In this document: in pieces, positions 3,172 through 35,881 of the stretch
Layout: each line of letters starts with the position of its first letter
Position numbering within the stretch: the first letter of the stretch is position 1
Sequence record: KT184316.1
Strand: one strand, 5' to 3'
DNA length: 64,000 nucleotides
Source of the DNA: Enterobacteria phage XTG1
The notes under the pieces: model-generated
Databases searched by the model: none
Seen by the model: the letters and a program-made list of their open reading frames with translations, nothing else
What the model was told of the DNA's origin: nothing
Program-made: the position numbers and the translations under genes

Positions 3172-3539
3172 AGTGGCTAGAGGAAGCTTTTAAAAATAAT
3201 ATTGGTGCAATTGTAGTTGGTATTTTTAGTGTTATTGGGATGTATACCACCATGCAAGTCTCGGATGGTAAGCAAGAAGTGTCTGTCACAACAAAGTTAC
3301 AGCAGTTAGATAATTATTCCAAAAGTAACTATTCAGCTATTCGTGATTTACAGTCTGACATGAGACTGATTCAGCTAGGGATGGAGAACCAGAAAGTTCA
3401 GTTAGAGAATGTTAAGGGTGAAAACGCAAAACTTACCAAAACTCTTGATAAATTCTCTGACAGTGTGAACAATCTGGCTCAATCAGTATCAGCCCTCCAA
3501 GCTATTACTGAAAAGAACACAAAGAATACTGAAAGATAA
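3168..3539 (+). CDS. Hypothetical membrane-anchored coiled-coil protein
   Basis: 123 aa; N-terminal TM helix (GAIVVGIFSVIGMY) then heptad-rich segment; possibly a fibre assembly or lysis accessory protein. Confidence 0.45.
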   Translation: MKWLEEAFKNNIGAIVVGIFSVIGMYTTMQVSDGKQEVSVTTKLQQLDNYSKSNYSAIRDLQSDMRLIQLGMENQKVQLENVKGENAKLTKTLDKFSDSVNNLAQSVSALQAITEKNTKNTER

Positions 3540-3545
3540 AATTTA

Positions 3546-3572
3546 AGGCTCCTTTTTACGGGAGCCTTTTTT
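3546..3572. terminator. Bidirectional intrinsic terminator between convergent genes
   Basis: aggctcc-tttttacg-ggagcct hairpin followed by T6; sits between plus-strand ORF end 3539 and minus-strand gene end 3576. Confidence 0.6.
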
Positions 3573-3575
3573 GTT

Positions 3576-4475
3576 TTACTTGCCTACTGACAGAGGTGCT
3601 TCAATCTTCCCTGCATGTTGGTAGTTGTTAATTCCACCAATAAAGTCACTTGCAGTAAGATGTTTTAAGTCACTTAAAGTGTTAAGCTGTACACCAATCT
3701 CAAAAGTAGGTGCATGGAACTCTTCATTGTTCATCAGTTCATAAACCTGCTTCATATGGTTCTGATAAATCTGAGTATCTCCAAAGACACCTATCAAGTA
3801 CCGTGGAGTGTATCCAGTCATCTTGCAAAGAACTTCTAAGATGAAGCCATAAGACGCAATGTTAAACGGAAGTCCTAAAAAGGTGTCTACAGAACGCTGA
3901 TACCATTGCAAATCCACTTCACCTTCATTAGTGATATAAATCTGAAACAGAACATGACAAGGTGCTAAAGCCATTGAGTTTGCTGCAATATCTGCTGCAT
4001 TCCAAGCATTAACAAGCATGTAACGGTCTGTGATATCACCCTTCATCTTCGTTACTAAGGTCTCTAACTGGTCTACAACACAACCATTATGACCTTCGAA
4101 GTTTCTCCACTGGACCCCATAGATTCTCCCACCTGCATCTTCTAACCAATCTTGTTCAGAAGAATAATTAGAACTTAACCATCGTTTAAAATCATCTGAC
4201 CAGATAGTCCAGCGTTTCCCATCATTTTCACCCCAAGTACGGTAACGAAGTTCACCAAGTTTATTCTCACCATTCAGGAACCATAAAGCTTCCCCAATGA
4301 CTTGCCGTGTAAACACCTGTTTAGATGTTAAGAGCGGGAAACCAGTTCGCATATCAAAACGAAACTGAGGTGGAGCAAATGCAGAGATAACATCTCCAGT
4401 TCGTGTAGTACGCAGTTCACCAACGGATAAAACATGGTTCAGGATATTTTTGTAACTTGAATCTGCTTGTGACAT
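3576..4475 (-). CDS. thyA: Thymidylate synthase
   Basis: 299 aa; thymidylate synthase family signatures in translation (…RQVIGEALWFLNGE…, …ALAPCHVLFQ…). Confidence 0.93.
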   Translation of the reverse strand: MSQADSSYKNILNHVLSVGELRTTRTGDVISAFAPPQFRFDMRTGFPLLTSKQVFTRQVIGEALWFLNGENKLGELRYRTWGENDGKRWTIWSDDFKRWLSSNYSSEQDWLEDAGGRIYGVQWRNFEGHNGCVVDQLETLVTKMKGDITDRYMLVNAWNAADIAANSMALAPCHVLFQIYITNEGEVDLQWYQRSVDTFLGLPFNIASYGFILEVLCKMTGYTPRYLIGVFGDTQIYQNHMKQVYELMNNEEFHAPTFEIGVQLNTLSDLKHLTASDFIGGINNYQHAGKIEAPLSVGK

Positions 4476-17196: not shown

Positions 17197-19174
17197 AGGT
17201 CGTAAATTGAAAGAGGCTGGTCAGTTTATTGGTCATTGTGCATGTCCACGTTGTGGTTCATCAGACGCTGGTTCAATCTATCATCATGACGATGATTCTT
17301 ATTCGATGACTTGCTTTAGTTGTAACAAAGGTTTCCCAGAGTGGGATTTTGATAAAGGACAAATCGTGAGCACTTATTCTACTGGTTCAGACAATAAAAA
17401 CCGTACTTTCCGTGGAATGGATTTAGACGATGTGAAAGAAAACCTTGAAGCAATGGACTTAAAGGACAGGAAGATTCCTGCAAAAGTTCTTGAGCGTTTA
17501 GGTATCAAGGTTGACATTGACAGTGATGGTGAAATTGACGCGCATTTCTACCCAACTTACAAACGCAATGAAGATGGCAAGCTAGAGCATGTTGGCTACC
17601 GTGTTCGTCACCGTTACCCAGAAGACCATCCAAAAGAGCACCTACGAGGTAAGTTAAAAGACTTTTCTGGTGGTGTTGGAGACATTAAAGGTGAACTGGC
17701 AATGTTCGGTTCATGGATTGCTCCAGAAGGTGGTAACCGTCTATTCATCTGGGAAGGTGAGATGGAATGTGCGACAGCAATCTATATGACTTCTCTTGCG
17801 ATTAAGGACAAGTCTCGTCGTAAAAATTACTGTCACGTATCTGTTCCATCAGGTGCAAACATCAAGTCTATCAAGGATAACTATCAGTACATTACATCAT
17901 TTGATGAGATTTACTTGTGCTTTGATAACGATGAAGCAGGTGCTAAAGCCACTAAAGAGGCTGCTGGTATCCTACCTATTGAGAAGGTTCGTTTATTCCA
18001 GTATCCAGAAGGCGTAAAAGACCTTAACGAGTGGTGGACAAAGTTCTATAAAGAGAAAGATACAGTTCTGGAAGGATTTAAGCAGCGTATCTACAATGCA
18101 CCTCGTTACTGTCCTGCTGGTATCAAGAACTTTGCAGATGGTTTTGAGGCAATGAAGAATCGTGGTCAGATTCCATTGATTCCTTTCCCAGAATCTTTCG
18201 GAGATTTGAACAGGCTGACTTATGGTGGTTACGGTTTAGGTGAGATTACAACTATTGCAGCACCATCTTCAGTAGGTAAGTCAGCTTACACTCGTGAGAT
18301 GATTTACTCAGCTTGGAAAGAAACTGATTATAATATCGGTGTAATTCCTGTAGAAGATACCTATGAAGAGTTGATGGAGATGCTCTGTGCAATCCACCTG
18401 AGCAAGCAGATTTCTGAGATTCCTTATGATGAACGGGATTGGGATGAATTAAAAGGAGCACACGCAGAACTTTCAAAAGGTCGTCGTATCCATATCGTTG
18501 ACCATCAAGGGGCAATTGACCAAGATAACCTGCTAGAGTTTGTTGACTATCTTGTTAACAGTTTAGACTGTAAGATTATCATTCTTGACCCTATCACGTT
18601 AGCCCTGTCACGTTCTGATACGGATGAAGAAGAAGTTTTGTCTGAGCTATTGCGTCGTTGCAAACGCTACCAGTATGCGCAGGTGAACGTCTGTCACGTT
18701 CGTAAGAGTGCAGGCGGTCAGAAGGCTAACTCCGAAGGTGGAGATATCTCTGAAGAGGATATTAAAGGTTCTGGTGCGTATTTCCAGATTTCTATGAACA
18801 ACATTCTGTTAATGCGTAACAAGGTTGACCCAGACCCTGTTAAGAAAAACTTGACAAAAATCAAGTTAACTAAATGCCGTCGTCACGGTAAGTCAACGGG
18901 TATTGCTGGTCATACTTGGTACAATCCAGATACAGGACGTCTCATTAAAGCATCTGGTTGTGGAGTTGACATTGATGGTGCAGCAGAAAATATTCGTCAA
19001 CAGTTTGGTATTGGTGAAGCTGAAGACCATTATGATGACTCTTTGCCTCATTATGAGGATGAAGTGTTTGACCGTGAGACTGGTGAAGTCTATACTGAAG
19101 AACAACGTCAAAGCTCAACGATTCCACCTGTATTAAGTGAGGATGCAGATGACTGCCCGTTTGAAACTGAGTGA
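17189..19174 (+). CDS. Bifunctional DNA primase-helicase (T7 gp4-like)
   Basis: N-terminal Cys4 zinc ribbon (CACPRCGS…CFSCNKG), TOPRIM-like centre, DnaB-type Walker A (AAPSSVGKS); start moved to ATG 17189 (track start is GTG). Confidence 0.88.
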   Translation: MSKGRKLKEAGQFIGHCACPRCGSSDAGSIYHHDDDSYSMTCFSCNKGFPEWDFDKGQIVSTYSTGSDNKNRTFRGMDLDDVKENLEAMDLKDRKIPAKVLERLGIKVDIDSDGEIDAHFYPTYKRNEDGKLEHVGYRVRHRYPEDHPKEHLRGKLKDFSGGVGDIKGELAMFGSWIAPEGGNRLFIWEGEMECATAIYMTSLAIKDKSRRKNYCHVSVPSGANIKSIKDNYQYITSFDEIYLCFDNDEAGAKATKEAAGILPIEKVRLFQYPEGVKDLNEWWTKFYKEKDTVLEGFKQRIYNAPRYCPAGIKNFADGFEAMKNRGQIPLIPFPESFGDLNRLTYGGYGLGEITTIAAPSSVGKSAYTREMIYSAWKETDYNIGVIPVEDTYEELMEMLCAIHLSKQISEIPYDERDWDELKGAHAELSKGRRIHIVDHQGAIDQDNLLEFVDYLVNSLDCKIIILDPITLALSRSDTDEEEVLSELLRRCKRYQYAQVNVCHVRKSAGGQKANSEGGDISEEDIKGSGAYFQISMNNILLMRNKVDPDPVKKNLTKIKLTKCRRHGKSTGIAGHTWYNPDTGRLIKASGCGVDIDGAAENIRQQFGIGEAEDHYDDSLPHYEDEVFDRETGEVYTEEQRQSSTIPPVLSEDADDCPFETE

Positions 19175-23774: not shown

Positions 23775-26009
23775 ATGATTAAGACAATTAAAAAATCAAA
23801 TGGTACAGTAGTAAGCTTTGACCCAGAAAGACTGAATAAGTGGGCATCATGGGCAGATAAACGTGGAATTATCTGGTCAGAAGTCACTATGGAAGCTATG
23901 AAACGTGTCTATGAGGGTTGCACTACAAAAGAGATGCACCAAGCCATGATTGATGTTTGTGTTGATAAACAAACTCAAGAGTACTCAGATATGGCTGGAC
24001 GACTGCTTTTGGGTATTATCTACAAAGAAGCCTTTGGAGGCTTTACTAAGGTTCCTACGCTGATTACCTTCGTTAAAAATATGGAGAGAGCAGGACTTTG
24101 GGAGAAGATGGATTATTCACAGGAAGAGCTTGAATACCTGCAAGGTTACATCGTGCACTCAAAAGATATCTCTTACGGTTATGCAGTCTTGAAACAGTTC
24201 AGAGACAAGTACGGTATCCGTGATATTAAAACGGGAAGACTGTTTGAGTCACCACAATTTATGTTTATGGGTATGGCTATGAAAGCCTTTGAGAAGCAAC
24301 CAAAGCACCGTAGACTGCAAGATGTTATCAAGCTGTACACTTACTTATCTGACCTGAAGATTAACGCTCCTACGCCCTATTTAAACGGGTTAAGAGCAAC
24401 TAAATCAGGTTATGCGTCATGCTGTTTGATTAAGGCAAATGATACTGCTGAGTCTCTTGGTATTGCTGCAAAGGTTGCTTATGATATGACCACAAAGCAA
24501 GCTGGTATTGGTATGCTGATGGAGACACGTACTATTGGTGATGGTATCCGTCAAAATACGATTGAGCACATGGGTAAACTACCTTATTACAAGCTTGTAC
24601 GTTCATCTGTAGAGGCAAACAAACAGAAGAGTCGTGGCGGTTCAGCTAATAACTTCTACACTGCTCTAGACCCGCAGATTGAAGATTTACTGCGTTTGAA
24701 GCACCCTACAACGGTTCCTTCTAAACGTATTAATGAGATGGACTATTCATTCGGCACAAACGATTATTTCTGGCAGTGTGTTCAGTATGATACAGATTGG
24801 TTGCTATTCTCTTACAAAGATGCACCAAAACTCTATGACATGTTCTACACAGCATCTGCTGATGAGTTTGCTATGGCAGTTGGTCACGCAGTACATTCAG
24901 GAGTTAAGCACAGACGAGTAAAGGCTCGTGAAATTGCCAAGCTGTTTATTCAACAGCGTTATGCTACAGGTCGTGTGTATCCATTCTTCACTAACAATGC
25001 GAACACACATACACCATTTAAAGAACCATTGAAGATGTCAAATCTTTGTATGGAAATTGTGTTGCCAGTGTATGGTTTTGAGAAAGAGACAGACCTTTAC
25101 AGAGACGATGCTGTGAAAGAGGATGGTGAGGTGGCTCTTTGCTTCCTAGCTAGTTTGGTTGCAGGGAGAATTTCAGAAGATGAATACGCTGACGTTGCTT
25201 ATTATGCTCTTGCAATGGTTGACTCCGTTATTGACCTTATGGATTATCCGTATCCGTCGATGCGTAACCATGTTCAGAAGCGTCGTTCTGTTGGGATTGG
25301 CCTTACAAATGTGGCTCATTACCTTGCGAAGAACTACGTGAACTACTCTTCACGAGCAGGTAAGACGAAGCTTCATGAGCTTGCTGAAATGCACTCTTAC
25401 TACTTACACGAAGCTTCTTTAAGACTTGCTAAAGAACGTGGTGTACCTGAGTATATGCAGTTCACTAAGTATCCTGAAGGCTGGGTTCCTCCAAAGACAG
25501 CTAACAAGAAGATTGATGAGAAGCATGATGCAAAACTTCGTTATGATTGGGATGACTTAGCACAACGTATTAAAGAAAATGGTGGAATCCGTAACTCTGT
25601 ATTAGAGGCTTACATGCCTAATGAGAGTTCTTCACTGGCAACTAATACGACAAACGGCTTGTACCCAATTCGTGACTTTATTTTAACTAAAAAGTCTGCA
25701 ACTGGTAACGTACTGTTTATTGTTCCAGATTACGAAGAGTTGAAGTATGTCTATGAAATTGCTTGGGATATTGACACCTTTGACCTGATTGATTGTTATG
25801 CAATTGTTCAAAAGTTCACTGGTCAAGCTATCTCTTCAGATTTCTATGTTGACTACGCAAAAGCTAAGAAGGTATCATTGGCTCAAGCTTTGAAGTACAT
25901 GATTTATGCTAACTCAGTAGGTATGAAAACTATGTACTACCTTAACAGTCGCATTGGTGTAGGTAAATCTGCACTGCAAGATGCTTATTGCGAGGGTTGT
26001 GGTGTTTAG
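23775..26009 (+). CDS. nrdA: Ribonucleotide reductase class Ia large subunit
   Basis: 744 aa; N-terminal ATP-cone-like region and RNR large-subunit length/composition; followed by nrdB. Confidence 0.9.
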   Translation: MIKTIKKSNGTVVSFDPERLNKWASWADKRGIIWSEVTMEAMKRVYEGCTTKEMHQAMIDVCVDKQTQEYSDMAGRLLLGIIYKEAFGGFTKVPTLITFVKNMERAGLWEKMDYSQEELEYLQGYIVHSKDISYGYAVLKQFRDKYGIRDIKTGRLFESPQFMFMGMAMKAFEKQPKHRRLQDVIKLYTYLSDLKINAPTPYLNGLRATKSGYASCCLIKANDTAESLGIAAKVAYDMTTKQAGIGMLMETRTIGDGIRQNTIEHMGKLPYYKLVRSSVEANKQKSRGGSANNFYTALDPQIEDLLRLKHPTTVPSKRINEMDYSFGTNDYFWQCVQYDTDWLLFSYKDAPKLYDMFYTASADEFAMAVGHAVHSGVKHRRVKAREIAKLFIQQRYATGRVYPFFTNNANTHTPFKEPLKMSNLCMEIVLPVYGFEKETDLYRDDAVKEDGEVALCFLASLVAGRISEDEYADVAYYALAMVDSVIDLMDYPYPSMRNHVQKRRSVGIGLTNVAHYLAKNYVNYSSRAGKTKLHELAEMHSYYLHEASLRLAKERGVPEYMQFTKYPEGWVPPKTANKKIDEKHDAKLRYDWDDLAQRIKENGGIRNSVLEAYMPNESSSLATNTTNGLYPIRDFILTKKSATGNVLFIVPDYEELKYVYEIAWDIDTFDLIDCYAIVQKFTGQAISSDFYVDYAKAKKVSLAQALKYMIYANSVGMKTMYYLNSRIGVGKSALQDAYCEGCGV

Positions 26010-31689: not shown

Positions 31690-31947
31690 ATGGGACTCTG
31701 GAATAGTTTTAAATCAAAAGTAAAAGCAGCACTAGCTTCATTAGGTATGCTCACTGGTGTTGATGTGACTCACCTTATGCAGAACTTCAATATGGATGAG
31801 AAGCTGGCTAATGAGATTATGAAAAGTATCTATGTAGGCCGTGGTAAAGGTGGTAAGAAACAAGCCCACCGTCCGTCTGGTGCAGCAGCTATTAAACGAG
31901 CAGCTAAGAAAGCTCGTAACCGTAAACGTAATAAGAAGGCTAAATAA
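31690..31947 (+). CDS. Hypothetical protein with highly basic C-terminus
   Basis: 85 aa; …AAKKARNRKRNKKAK tail. Confidence 0.4.
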   Translation: MGLWNSFKSKVKAALASLGMLTGVDVTHLMQNFNMDEKLANEIMKSIYVGRGKGGKKQAHRPSGAAAIKRAAKKARNRKRNKKAK

Positions 31948-32270: not shown

Positions 32271-32321
32271 ACAGATACTATAAGGGGACTGTAAAGGTTC
32301 CCTTTTTATTTTGGAGGTAAA

Positions 32322-32837
32322 ATGTATCTGTCAAACCTGAAACGTTCGGTTGCAATGTCAGTTCTAAGACTCAGCTTTGATGAGCGTCAAGAGTTTATAG
32401 ACTCCCACAAATATGACCCTTCAAATTCTAATCACATGGTTCTTTGGAATCGTGATAACTTCCGTGAAAGAGCACTTGTCCGTTATTACCCACACTACAC
32501 AATAGATAACCTGTATGAATGGTGTGTTGTGAAGAACACCATTGCAACACTGAACAATCTTTGCAGGTATACGGGTAAGCAAACATTTACATTAGGTCAT
32601 CACAAACCTGTTACAAAAGGTGGTGAACATCACTGTGCAAACTGGTTTATCCAAACTAAAACTGATAACCAGAAGCAAGGAGATAGCCTCCTAAGTATCC
32701 CTAAGATGACCTATGAAGAGCAAGAGAAATATATCAAAAATAATATGCCAGATGTGCTTGACAACAACTATACAGATTTGGCAATATATCTCCTGTTGAA
32801 GTTCGAGACAGTTTATAGGGCAACTTATAATGGCTAG
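32322..32837 (+). CDS. HNH-like nuclease (tentative)
   Basis: LGHHKPVTKGGEHHCANWFIQTKTDNQKQ resembles an HNH/His-Me finger core. Confidence 0.35.
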   Translation: MYLSNLKRSVAMSVLRLSFDERQEFIDSHKYDPSNSNHMVLWNRDNFRERALVRYYPHYTIDNLYEWCVVKNTIATLNNLCRYTGKQTFTLGHHKPVTKGGEHHCANWFIQTKTDNQKQGDSLLSIPKMTYEEQEKYIKNNMPDVLDNNYTDLAIYLLLKFETVYRATYNG

Positions 32838-33108
32838 AGAAAAGTGGGAGATTTTACCATTAGTCAGTGAAGGAGGTAATGGTTGTGAAATGTACATGAT
32901 ACGTGGTCATGTTCCAGAGCCAATTGCACTTGAGATGGTAAACAACTTTACAGATGGTTCTTACAAAGACTTAGGCGAACCAACTGTCAAGCAACAATGG
33001 GTTAAACCTGTACCAGACAGCACAGGTAACTGTAGTGTACTTTATCACGTTGTAGACCCTGCAAAATGCAAATCTGCAATGGCAGTAACAAACGTAACTT
33101 TTGATTGA
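32830..33108 (+). CDS. Hypothetical protein
   Basis: 92-aa ORF, overlaps both neighbours. Confidence 0.4.
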   Translation: MAREKWEILPLVSEGGNGCEMYMIRGHVPEPIALEMVNNFTDGSYKDLGEPTVKQQWVKPVPDSTGNCSVLYHVVDPAKCKSAMAVTNVTFD

Positions 33109-34001
33109 GAGAGAAAACTATGAAAACATCTATCCGTGTTACAGTTCATTCACCAACTAAAGGAACTCATGAAGAAGAGTTTAACATCATCCAATTTCCT
33201 TCTGGTGAGATTGGTGGACACTTTTCGCCAGAGTTTGTTGATTTCACTGCTTATGCAGCATCATCCATCAACAATGTGATTATGATTGTAAAAGGTTATG
33301 ATAAGGATACATTGTTTGCTGTGGCACTTGCTAAAGAAGCAATTGATGATTTAATTCCTCATGATTATGCTTTAAAGACTGTCATCTTTTACTACTTACC
33401 AAATGCACGTTATGACCGTCACATGTTTAAAGGCGACGCAGCAGCTTTAAAGGTTTTTGCTAAACAGATTAATGCAATGGGGTTTGGCGCAGTCTGTGCA
33501 GTTGACCCTCACAGCTATGTACCAGATAACCTGTTTAACTGCTTCCAGAGTATTCCTCAAAAGGAGATTGCAGTCCACTATGCAAATGACCCTCTAATTG
33601 ATTACTTAGTAGCCCCAGATGCAGGTGCTTCTAAGAAGATTGCAGAGACTGCTAAAGAGGTGGATAAACCATATATCACAATGTCTAAGGTGCGAAATCT
33701 TAAGACTGGAGAAATCACTGGTATGCGAATCCTTGACGATGTTGATTTGACAGATAAAACTGTCATGATTCTGGATGATATTTGTGATGGAGGTCGAACC
33801 TTCATAGAAGCAGCTAAACATCTTCGTGAAGCAGGTGCAAAACGTGTTGAGCTTTATGTAACACATGGTATCTTCTCTAAAGGTGTTGAAAACCTTCTTG
33901 ACAATGGTATCGACCATATTTACACTACAAACTCTTTAGGCGAAGCTAAAGACCGTGGCTTAACACATTATGGTCAAGTTACTGTAGCAAACCTTGATTG
34001 A
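33105..34001 (+). CDS. Ribose-phosphate pyrophosphokinase (PRPP synthetase)-like protein; candidate ADP-ribose pyrophosphokinase of a NARP1-type NAD+ reconstitution pathway
   Basis: VAPDAGASKK and VMILDDICDGGRTFIEAAKHLREAGAKRVELYVTHGIFS match Prs signatures; immediately upstream of a Nampt-like gene. Confidence 0.75.
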   Translation: MREKTMKTSIRVTVHSPTKGTHEEEFNIIQFPSGEIGGHFSPEFVDFTAYAASSINNVIMIVKGYDKDTLFAVALAKEAIDDLIPHDYALKTVIFYYLPNARYDRHMFKGDAAALKVFAKQINAMGFGAVCAVDPHSYVPDNLFNCFQSIPQKEIAVHYANDPLIDYLVAPDAGASKKIAETAKEVDKPYITMSKVRNLKTGEITGMRILDDVDLTDKTVMILDDICDGGRTFIEAAKHLREAGAKRVELYVTHGIFSKGVENLLDNGIDHIYTTNSLGEAKDRGLTHYGQVTVANLD

Positions 34002-34010
34002 AAGTTTATA

Positions 34011-34032
34011 GGGGCTTGAAAGCCCCATTTTG
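34011..34032 (+). terminator. Terminator-like hairpin
   Basis: ggggctt-gaa-agcccc then ATTTTG. Confidence 0.4.
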
Positions 34033-34046
34033 AGAGAGATTAAAAG

Positions 34047-35828
34047 ATGACTAAATCACTTTATGCAGTACCAGCAGGTTTAAACGCAGATGCTTACAAA
34101 TCTGGTCATGTTTACCAGTACCCTAGTGCAACAGAATATTTGATGTTCAACCTGACACCACGTAGCGACAAATGGTTTAACAGTCCATTAGCAATTGATG
34201 GTGTAGTCGCTTTTGGTATTCAACGTTTTGTTAAAGATTACTTGATAGACCACTGGAACGCTACGTTCTTTGAACGTGACAAAAAAGAAGCAATTGACGA
34301 AATCTTAGAAGTCATGAATGGTGTTCTGGGCAAAGATGCTATCGGTCGAGAGCATTGGGAAGCACTCCACGATTTAGGTTATCTACCAGTTGAAGTATAT
34401 GCTGTAGAAGAAGGTACAGTTGTCCCGATGCGTGTCCCAATGATTGTCTTCCAGAACACTGTTTCAGGCTTCCATTGGGTAGCAGGTTATCTGGAAGATG
34501 CTTTCTCTGCTGAGATTTGGAAGGCTTGCACCATTGCGACTATTGCATTGCACTACAAACGCATCTGTAAGAAGTGGGCTGACCTTACTTGTGACAATGA
34601 CTTACATTTACCTTATCAGTGCCATGATTTTGCTATGCGTGGTATGTCCGGCTTTACTGATGACGCATTTAACGCTGTAGGTCACTTAACCAGCTTTAAA
34701 GGGACTGATAGCTTCCCTGCTGTATACACGGCTAAACGAATCTATGGACAGTCCTACCCAATCTCTGATATTGGTAGTTCTGTACCAGCCACTGAGCACT
34801 CTGTAATGTGTGCAAACATTGCTTGGGAAGGTGGTAATGAGTTGATTGAAGAAGAAAGACGCTTTAAAGGTGAGTTACAAACCTTCCGTCGTTTCTTAAC
34901 AGAAACTTACCCAACAGGTATTGCAAGCATTGTTTCAGATACTTATAACTTCTGGAGAACTGTGTCAGAAATCTTACCAGCACTTCGTAAAGAAATTATG
35001 GAACGTGATGGCAAACTGGTAATTCGCCCTGACTCTGGAGACCCTGTACATATTGTCACAGGTTATAAAGCAATCCACTTAGAATGTGCTAAGAAGGCTT
35101 ATTACGAGCACCTAAGCAAGCTGGAAGCCAGTGACACAATGTTGAATGCTGTTCTGAACATGAAGCTTGAGAACATCAACTATGGTATTGCTGGATGGCT
35201 ACTGTCAGAAGGCTACGAGATGGTTGTTGACAGAGAAGACTTTGAAGTTGCTGATACAGTGATGTTGAAAAATGCTTATATGGTTGGTTCTGCAAACGTT
35301 GTAACACGTCCTGTAGCTGAGATTGATGGAGCTATTAAGACACTGTACAACATCTTTGGGGGAACTATTAACTCTAAAGGTTTTAAAGTACTGGATGAGC
35401 ATATTGGACTTATTTATGGCGACTCTATCACGTTGGAACGTGCAAATGAAATACTGAAGCGTTTGTATGAAATGGGTTTTGCAAGCTCTAACGTAGTGTT
35501 TGGTGTAGGTTCTTACACTTACCAGTACATGACTCGTGACACCTTTGCATTTGCTGTCAAAGCAACTCTTGCAAGCATTGGTGGTAAAGAGATTATGCTT
35601 GCAAAAGACCCTAAAACAGATAGTGGTGTTAAGAAGTCTGCTTTTGGTGGTGTAGCACCTATGTGGGATGGTGAAAATCTGAAAGCTGTAGATGGCTATG
35701 GGTTCCAGAGCTTTGCAGATGCACTTGAACATCCAGCTTGTGCTTTACGTCTAGTCTTTAGCGACTCTGAGCAGTTCGGCTACACAACTCTTGGTGATAT
35801 TCGAAATAATATTGACAAGCAGCTTTAA
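34047..35828 (+). CDS. Nicotinamide phosphoribosyltransferase (Nampt)-like protein; candidate nicotinamide ADP-ribose transferase
   Basis: 593 aa; called from overall resemblance of the translation to Nampt/NadV family proteins and from genomic pairing with the Prs-like gene; not alignment-verified. Confidence 0.7.
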   Translation: MTKSLYAVPAGLNADAYKSGHVYQYPSATEYLMFNLTPRSDKWFNSPLAIDGVVAFGIQRFVKDYLIDHWNATFFERDKKEAIDEILEVMNGVLGKDAIGREHWEALHDLGYLPVEVYAVEEGTVVPMRVPMIVFQNTVSGFHWVAGYLEDAFSAEIWKACTIATIALHYKRICKKWADLTCDNDLHLPYQCHDFAMRGMSGFTDDAFNAVGHLTSFKGTDSFPAVYTAKRIYGQSYPISDIGSSVPATEHSVMCANIAWEGGNELIEEERRFKGELQTFRRFLTETYPTGIASIVSDTYNFWRTVSEILPALRKEIMERDGKLVIRPDSGDPVHIVTGYKAIHLECAKKAYYEHLSKLEASDTMLNAVLNMKLENINYGIAGWLLSEGYEMVVDREDFEVADTVMLKNAYMVGSANVVTRPVAEIDGAIKTLYNIFGGTINSKGFKVLDEHIGLIYGDSITLERANEILKRLYEMGFASSNVVFGVGSYTYQYMTRDTFAFAVKATLASIGGKEIMLAKDPKTDSGVKKSAFGGVAPMWDGENLKAVDGYGFQSFADALEHPACALRLVFSDSEQFGYTTLGDIRNNIDKQL

Positions 35829-35842
35829 AAGTATATGATAAG

Positions 35843-35866
35843 AGGCTCCTACGGGAGCCTTTTTAA
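35843..35866 (+). terminator. Intrinsic terminator
   Basis: aggctcc-tacg-ggagcct + TTTTT. Confidence 0.6.
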
Positions 35867-35881
35867 TTTCTGGAGAAGATT

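Follow-up and report, generated by a model that had tools for sequence, protein, structure and literature searches.

The adps–namat gene pair of a FelixO1-like phage is an orthologue of the founding NARP1 example in phage Bas63

The window, by which we mean the whole 64,000-nucleotide stretch of DNA that was analysed, is a segment of a Felixounavirus genome, collinear with phage Bas63 (JohannRWettstein) at 91–98% DNA identity. It matched 249 phage records, nearly all of them named as Escherichia, Salmonella, Shigella or Citrobacter phages or as Felixounavirus, and the matched records whose taxonomy was examined belong to the Ounavirinae. A first-pass annotation had described two adjacent, co-oriented ORFs coding for a Prs-like protein and a 593-residue Nampt-like protein, and both were found at the positions and on the strand that it gave. 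We refer to them as adps and namat. According to the published NARP1 vicinity criterion, a Namat homologue lies within ten genes of adps; here, the two genes share a strand, with namat starting 45 nt past the adps stop codon, and the gene order and flanking genes are the same as in Bas63. The region has the following features:

32322–33108, + strand: two co-oriented ORFs (171 and 92 residues) upstream of adps, from the ORF list
33107–33114, + strand: GAGAGAGA ribosome-binding motif before adps, read from the sequence
33120–34001, + strand: adps, predicted ADP-ribose pyrophosphokinase of the Prs family, 293 residues, from the ORF and homology
33120–33614, + strand: divergent N-terminal allele patch of adps, codons 1–165, from DNA and amino acid identity to Bas63
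34011–34031, + strand: intergenic hairpin GGGGCU-UGAA-AGCCCC followed by AUUUU (stem-loop, 34011–34026), from folding and conservation
34047–35828, + strand: namat, predicted nicotinamide ADP-ribose transferase of the Nampt family, 593 residues, from the ORF and homology
34161–34199, + strand: putative selectivity-clamp loop (SCL) of Namat, residues ~39–51, RSDKWFNSPLAID, with K42 and W43, from alignment to SPbetaL1 R40
35064–35327, + strand: lineage-specific Namat insertion, residues ~340–427 (~77–88 residues), predicted compact alpha/beta subdomain
35508–35540, + strand: putative selectivity-clamp helix (SCH) motif of Namat, GSYTYQYMTRD, residues 488–498, which fits the published Namat consensus
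35840–35868, + strand: intrinsic terminator after namat (stem-loop, 35840–35863), from a terminator scan and folding

The mechanically defined adps ORF opens at a TTG codon (33105) that shares bases with the stop codon of the ORF upstream, and this gives the length of 298 residues reported earlier. All annotated relatives, however, use the ATG at 33120 (293 residues), which is preceded by the GAGAGAGA motif; the same motif also stands ahead of namat (34032–34039). The ATG is the likely start of adps. Between adps and the preceding terminator (32282–32304) lie the 171- and 92-residue ORFs, which match PHROGs 3500 and 4726, both annotated as of unknown function, and which Bas63, Sf15 and SUSP1 have in the same place; the longer one also shows a weak HNH-like match. 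No Macro or RyR domain (Pfam) was found in the four ORFs between position 31690 and adps, in the two downstream ORFs or in rIIA, and without such a gene alongside, the locus has the plain two-gene form of NARP1. An Rfam scan of the window returned tRNAs only, with no known RNA element inside the adps–namat region, and the annotation of Bas63, over the 40 kb examined, contains no Nmnat.

Both Prs signatures noted earlier, VAPDAGASKK and VMILDDICDGGRTFIEAAKHLREAGAKRVELYVTHG, are present in the 298-residue translation, and the family matches agree with them: Pfam PF00156 and PF14572, and PHROG 619, annotated as 'ribose-phosphate pyrophosphokinase' (E = 1e-97). The placement of the protein within this family draws on pairwise identity, table listing, profile scores and equivalog cut-offs. 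The window Adps is identical to Bas63 Adps (bas63_0079) at 230 of 293 positions (78%); with the KhF1 protein, an entry of the supplementary Prs/Adps table of Osterman et al. (bioRxiv 10.1101/2024.02.11.579819), identity rises to 99.3%. Indeed, wV8, HY02 and KhF1, which carry the Adps allele of the window, all appear in those supplementary tables, with the partner Namat labelled 'Adps-associated'. Against a profile built from four Adps proteins of NARP1 loci with published experiments, all from outside the Ounavirinae, the window and Bas63 Adps scored 169.0 and 168.6 bits, and E. coli Prs 105.2 bits. Conversely, the window Adps fell below all NCBIfam Prs equivalog cut-offs, with 42–103 bits against 296–536 (for instance, 91 against 297), and it barely passed the subfamily model TIGR01251 (119.9 bits, threshold 113). 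These comparisons suggest that the protein belongs with the phage-specific Adps clade and not with cellular Prs. The catalytic lysine of SPbetaL1 Adps, K162, whose replacement by alanine inactivates the enzyme, aligns to K190 of the window protein, in the motif SKVRNLKTGEI, and is kept in all six of the Adps proteins compared. The residues that are invariant in our Adps/Prs alignment are also retained, among them the His of DPHS and those of the ARxDR motif. There is no Adps structure in the PDB, and the NAR paper describes it as unresolved. We also considered the altered phosphate-binding loop (DDICDGGRT; E. coli Prs has DDMIDTGGT), with its Arg binding the diphosphate of ADP-ribose, as an Adps signature; this was rejected because the loop varies among Adps proteins (SSFGGT in SPbetaL1, DGGGT in DyoEdafos and DGAAS in ICP1).

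The Nampt-like protein matches Pfam PF04095 and PF18127 and PHROG 448 (E = 4e-202), and is identical to Bas63 Namat (bas63_0080) at 585 of 593 positions (99%). Its best matches by sequence among solved structures are those of SPbetaL1 Namat (9w5w and 9w5x, E = 5e-128), and its predicted structure superposes best on the same two entries (target-normalised TM of 0.95), ahead of true Nampt enzymes. The catalytic and NAD-contact residues are all kept: D15, Y17, F195, R198, D221, A248, H251, R327 and D329, of which D15, Y17, F195, R198, D221, H251, R327 and D329 correspond to the SPbetaL1 core residues D13, Y15, F189, R192, D215, H245, R306 and D308. Also kept are G458, D459, G488, S489, T496, R497 and D498. 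Two elements bear on the specificity of the enzyme. In the SCL, the third position is Arg, Lys or Tyr, and either this residue or the next one stacks on the adenine; with Lys, it is the following residue that does so, and Bas63 Namat is given as an example (Lan et al., PMC12774641). The SCL stretch is identical in the window and Bas63 proteins. In the published SCH consensus, GS-X-phi-X-phi-X-phi-TRD, positions 3 and 7 are aromatic; in the window they are Y490 and Y494. The third phi is Met in both the window and Bas63, where Asn or Val is the usual published residue. 

The first-pass annotation was right in making the Nampt-like protein about 100 residues longer than canonical Nampt: it has 593 residues, against 491 in SPbetaL1 Namat. 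Relative to the latter, the extra length consists chiefly of an insertion of ~77 residues (at about 351–427), together with ~14 residues at about 258–272. For the main insertion, structure prediction gave a small subdomain with high confidence, and no structural relative of it was detected.

The intergenic hairpin has a 6-bp GC stem (−11.5 kcal/mol, z = −2.7) that is invariant across Felixounavirus and Mooglevirus, with a variable loop and T-tract. It fell below the threshold of our terminator scan and was not called, although in the annotation of AYO145A the same element is a rho-independent terminator. Covariation was absent, the stem being invariant in all five sequences, so that the five-sequence alignment speaks neither for nor against pairing. 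Tentatively, the hairpin may be a weak terminator-like or attenuator element. The terminator that follows namat is of a different kind, with a 10-bp stem and a T-run (−17.2 kcal/mol); shuffling the sequence 200 times gave no fold as stable, and a terminator is annotated at the matching position in Citrobacter phage Mordin. Of the earlier proposal that each gene has its own terminator, the part concerning namat therefore stands firmly, and the part concerning adps only to the extent of the sub-threshold hairpin. The further suggestion that the genes may be expressed separately is not borne out, as no promoter-like site was found in the 20 nt between the hairpin and the namat start codon. Given this short distance, and since the nearest promoter-like match (33898–33926) is upstream of the hairpin, it seems more likely that adps and namat are co-transcribed, with partial termination at a leaky hairpin.

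The discovery of NARP1 was made with genes 79–80 of Bas63, and the pair in the window is an orthologue of this founding example; it is thus already described and not new, and calling it a candidate NARP1-type module, as was done at first, undersells how established it is. By the proposed mechanism, a host defence NADase (SIR2, TIR or SEFIR) would split NAD+ into ADP-ribose and nicotinamide. Adps, a diverged enzyme of the Prs family, would use ATP to pyrophosphorylate ADP-ribose at its free ribose, giving ADPR-pyrophosphate (ADPR-PP). Namat, an enzyme of the Nampt family whose pocket entrance would clamp the adenine ring, would then replace the pyrophosphate with nicotinamide and so form NAD+ directly, with no NMN intermediate, and the restored NAD+ would allow the phage to replicate despite the defence. 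In Bas63, removal of genes 79–80 causes a ~20-fold loss of plating on SIR2-HerA, the wild-type phage partly restores NAD+, ADPR-PP is seen only when wild-type Bas63 and the defence are both present, and the rescue still occurs in a host without pncC and nadR, genes of NMN salvage (Osterman et al., bioRxiv 10.1101/2024.02.11.579819). Because the Bas63 protein 'did not purify well', all biochemistry was done with SPbetaL1 proteins, and none in vitro with Ounavirinae enzymes: these proteins convert ADP-ribose and ATP into ADPR-PP, and ADPR-PP and nicotinamide into NAD+. The phenotype and the in vivo detection of ADPR-PP thus come from Bas63, and the enzymology and structure from the SPbetaL1 homologues. 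SPbetaL1 NARP1 counters type I Thoeris, DSR1, DSR2 and SEFIR, and NARP1 of phage FADO gives rescue against DSR2. No paper combining Felixounavirus and NARP1 came up in our literature search. On the basis of orthology and of the conserved catalytic and specificity residues, we conclude that the gene pair is very probably the NARP1 of a FelixO1-like phage, in its plain two-gene form. Judged from sequence, the activity of the window Adps allele would be expected to equal that of Bas63 Adps.

Could the pair instead serve classical NAD+ salvage, with a true PRPP synthetase and a true Nampt producing NMN that host enzymes turn into NAD+? Nearly all public records name the proteins 'ribose-phosphate pyrophosphokinase' and 'nicotinamide phosphoribosyltransferase', both proteins score above the Pfam thresholds, the score of Adps with TIGR01251 is just sufficient, and SPbetaL1 Namat does make NMN from PRPP when ADPR-PP is not present. 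However, when PRPP and ADPR-PP were supplied together, Namat made NAD+ only, and SPbetaL1 Adps gave no product in a control assay for which the legend lists ribose-5-phosphate and ATP. The persistence of the Bas63 rescue in a host without pncC and nadR and the accumulation of ADPR-PP also speak against classical salvage, as do, in the window itself, the Adps scores below every Prs equivalog cut-off and the Namat-specific adenine clamp motif. We regard classical salvage as extremely improbable.

A second alternative accepts a NARP1-like pair but supposes that the divergent N-terminus of Adps alters its role, through another NAD+-derived substrate, through regulation or through evasion of a host factor directed at the Bas63-type allele. 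The patch that suggests this is sharply bounded: DNA identity to Bas63 is 64–79% within codons 1–165 and 87–98% on either side, and at the protein level it is 67% over residues 1–165 and 94% over residues 166–293. Moreover, the identity of the patch to each of the other Ounavirinae alleles in the comparison is only 67–70%, against 76–78% among those alleles themselves, across genera. Felixounaviruses have at least two widespread alleles, with about 154 records at least 90% identical to the window and 94 records at 60–80%. Fast positive selection was considered as the source of the patch and rejected, since the patch combines saturation at synonymous sites (pS 0.76) with a pN of only 0.20; these values point to old divergence and recombination under purifying selection. 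They also weigh against an altered role, together with the unchanged length of 293 residues, with no indels, the retention of the residues invariant in the Adps/Prs alignment, the unchanged partner Namat, and the place of the allele among the Prs/Adps homologues in the tables of Osterman et al., next to an 'Adps-associated' Namat. An altered role for Adps therefore seems very unlikely to us. Somewhat less improbable, though still unlikely, is that the Ounavirinae-specific Namat subdomain and the recombining N-terminal alleles of Adps are functional additions to NARP1, for regulation, for contact between the two enzymes or for escape from a host factor; we found no discussion of either in the NARP1 papers examined.

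With NARP1 as the preferred reading, the database names of adps and namat in hundreds of Felixounavirus records are misleading. FelixO1-like phages are used in typing and therapy, and a NARP1 counter to NAD+ depletion by SIR2, TIR or SEFIR systems would be useful to know of when host range is predicted. As a discovery, the locus carries little weight, close relatives being already in the supplementary tables of the original paper (Osterman et al.).

Among known systems, the closest is that of Bas63, from the same genus, with the same intergenic hairpin and a 99% identical Namat that has the insertion and the two clamp elements as well. The two differ in the N-terminal 165 residues of Adps, which at only 67% identity represent a different allele, and in bas63_0081, a small gene downstream of namat that is absent from the window. 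The system of the Bacillus phage SPbetaL1 (PDB 9w5w and 9w5x; Lan et al., PMC12774641) also has adjacent adps and namat genes in that order, and shares with the window the catalytic lysine of Adps, all NAD+-contact residues of Namat and the SCH pattern. In contrast, identity is only ~30% for Adps and 46% for Namat, the SPbetaL1 SCL stacks R40 on the adenine, the counterpart in the window being K42 and W43, the SPbetaL1 Namat is without the ~77- and ~14-residue insertions, and the SPbetaL1 genes overlap by one base, without a hairpin between them. The Adps and Namat core is also common to NARP1-AP of Vibrio phage Gary, which adds the Macro-domain phosphatase Adpp, and to NARP1 with RyDEP of Mycobacterium phage DyoEdafos. 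Such extended operons are recognised by a gene for the Macro-domain phosphatase or for a RyR-domain glycosidase in or next to the operon. The window has neither a Macro nor a RyR gene next to adps and namat or between them and so, by the published logic, its NARP1 would be expected to fail against aRES, the maker of ADPR-1''-phosphate. With NARP2 of Vibrio phage KVP40 and with cellular Nampt (human NAMPT; Haemophilus ducreyi NadV, PDB 9ke8), Namat shares its fold and catalytic core. True Nampt enzymes, however, use PRPP and are without the aromatic adenine clamp, and NARP2 joins Nampt to an NMN adenylyltransferase and not to a Prs-like partner, whereas the window Namat has the clamp motif and its partner is Adps.

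The first-pass annotation had placed two adjacent, co-oriented genes, one Prs-like and one Nampt-like, in this part of the window, and both open reading frames are real. They are listed here with the features discussed alongside them.

Features of the adps-namat region
32322-33108: two small ORFs (171 and 92 aa) between the preceding terminator and adps
33120-34001, plus strand: Prs-like ORF (adps), 293 aa from the ATG at 33120, or 298 aa from a TTG at 33105
34047-35828, plus strand: Nampt-like ORF (namat), 593 aa
35064-35327: insertion in Namat, residues ~340-427, after the RPDSGDP strand

The length of 298 residues first assigned to the Prs-like protein holds for the TTG at 33105. The ATG at 33120 is the more plausible start, because the upstream ORF ends in a stop codon that the TTG overlaps, a GAGAGAGA motif, also found before namat, precedes the ATG, and adps starts with ATG in every annotated relative.

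NARP1, in which Adps and Namat rebuild NAD+ from ADP-ribose and nicotinamide, was discovered in genes 79-80 of Escherichia phage Bas63, also named JohannRWettstein (Osterman et al., bioRxiv 10.1101/2024.02.11.579819). Without these genes, plating of Bas63 on SIR2-HerA falls about 20-fold, and NAD+ recovers in part with the wild-type phage. The rescue persists in the absence of host pncC and nadR, and the route therefore bypasses NMN; ADPR-pyrophosphate was seen only when phage genes and defence were present together. Because the Bas63 protein purified poorly, the enzymology used the homologous pair of phage SPbetaL1 (all Osterman et al., 10.1101/2024.02.11.579819). The window Namat is identical to bas63_0080 at 585 of 593 positions, and Adps to bas63_0079 at 230 of 293. 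The Adps proteins of wV8, HY02 and KhF1 appear in the supplementary tables of the same study, with their partner Namat proteins labelled 'Adps-associated' (10.1101/2024.02.11.579819); the window Adps is 99.3% identical to that of KhF1. This homology and the conserved defining features described below support the original reading of the pair as NARP1-type Adps and Namat.

By Pfam, PHROGs and NCBIfam, the two proteins belong to the Prs and Nampt/NAPRTase families. None of the curated NCBIfam cut-offs for Prs equivalogs is reached by the Prs-like protein; the one Prs model of NCBIfam that it passes, and then narrowly, is TIGR01251, a broad subfamily model. We aligned both proteins with NARP1 loci taken from published experiments (SPbetaL1, FADO, DyoEdafos and ICP1) and with E. 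coli prs. The profile search and inspection of substrate-pocket residues proposed by the first-pass annotation both agreed with its reading. Against a profile of the four non-Ounavirinae Adps proteins, the window's own Adps scored 169.0 bits, that of Bas63 168.6 and E. coli Prs 105.2, and K162 of SPbetaL1 Adps, whose mutation inactivates the enzyme, aligns to window K190. In Namat, the residues that crystal structures show to be catalytic or in contact with NAD+ (Lan et al., PMC12774641) either match those of SPbetaL1 or are replaced conservatively (A362 by S460, F392 by Y490). The published Namat-specific helix motif reads GSYTYQYMTRD, and the clamp loop carries K42 and W43, an arrangement described for Bas63 (Lan et al., PMC12774641). 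The AlphaFold2 model of the window Namat (pLDDT 92.6) fits Namat crystal structures best, with a target-normalised TM of 0.95; HdNadV and mammalian NAMPT, both true Nampt enzymes, rank lower.

The roughly 100 extra residues remarked on earlier in Namat are mainly the insertion, plus about 14 residues at ~258-272. A high-confidence prediction folds the insertion as a small, compact alpha/beta subdomain; a structure search returned no significant match for it, and it goes unmentioned in the paper on the Namat structure (Lan et al., PMC12774641). Within the phage collection it is confined to Ounavirinae-type records, and in metagenomes long Namat forms reach related ~85-92-kb phages. The same loop also bears insertions, differing in length and sequence, in other Namat lineages; the site therefore tolerates insertions.

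By nucleotide comparison, adps encodes a mosaic protein. Codons 1-165 (33120-33614) form a sharply bounded patch of 64-79% DNA identity to Bas63, flanked by 87-98% on either side; amino acid identity is 67% inside the patch and 94% beyond. The patch is about equidistant (67-70%) from the Bas63-type, Mooglevirus and Suspvirus alleles, which are 76-78% identical to each other across genera, and the C-terminal half of Adps tracks genus relationships. Synonymous sites in the patch are saturated (pS 0.76; pN 0.20), a pattern that looks like the transfer of an old allele by recombination rather than recent positive selection. At least two adps alleles are common among Felixounaviruses, and the FelixO1 Adps in Osterman's table looks, on inspection, like a chimera of both.

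The spacer between the genes holds a GC hairpin followed by a short U-run; two genera share exactly the same stem, and the loop and U-tract vary. The suggestion that the genes may be expressed separately is not supported: between the hairpin and the start of namat there are only 20 nt, which contain nothing like a promoter. We infer that the hairpin is a leaky terminator or a stabilising element. The spacer also appears to be a homing site. An HNH homing-endonuclease gene lies there in several relatives, namely SUSP1 (3491-3982 of the stretch compared) and, per annotation, VpaE1, skuden and GEC_vB_BS, and a comparable gap of ~470 bp is seen in several other records. Unlike SUSP1, the window (34002-34046) and Bas63 lack the gene. 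The 171-aa ORF upstream of adps has a weak HNH-like match; it and the 92-aa ORF hold the same position in Felixounavirus, Mooglevirus and Suspvirus.

Elsewhere, families of 44-99-nt intergenic repeats precede many small ORFs at 44500-51200. Every repeat has a promoter-like stretch containing TTGAC, a GC-rich hairpin (e.g. GGGGAGGGAATGACCTTCCCC) and a ribosome-binding site (CTGGAGA/TAGGAGA); the repeats resemble an expression cassette reiterated in the small-gene region. A tRNA cluster begins at 63474-63957 (tRNA-Pro, tRNA-Glu and tRNA-Met by ARAGORN; one further tRNA, 63884-63957, by Rfam), consistent with the tRNA array of FelixO1-like phages.

By megablast, 249 phage records match the gene pair, 210 of them at 90-99% identity. 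Nearly all carry names of Escherichia, Salmonella, Shigella or Citrobacter phages or of Felixounavirus, and those whose taxonomy was examined are Ounavirinae. The window is collinear with Bas63 (MZ501086) over ~39 kb at 91-98% identity. This alignment skips ~740 bp at window ~29079 (17828-18570 of the Bas63 stretch), where the split nrdD of Bas63 holds an intervening sequence that carries a homing-endonuclease gene; nrdD appears uninterrupted in the window. The two phages share their upstream neighbours (an NrdG-type radical-SAM activase and small ORFs without assigned function) and downstream neighbours (two small ORFs, then rIIA). They differ in bas63_0081, a 114-aa ORF without a Pfam match just 3' of namat in Bas63 (25509-25853), which is absent from the window (~35829-35881). 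In the extended operons of later preprints, the pair is joined by a Macro-domain phosphatase, giving the aRES-countering NARP1-AP, or by a glycosidase with a RyR domain. A Pfam scan found neither domain in the ORFs flanking adps-namat, so that the window NARP1 is, by gene content, the plain two-gene form. The pair is thus a known system, in the same phage genus where NARP1 was discovered, and its novelty is limited to small details.
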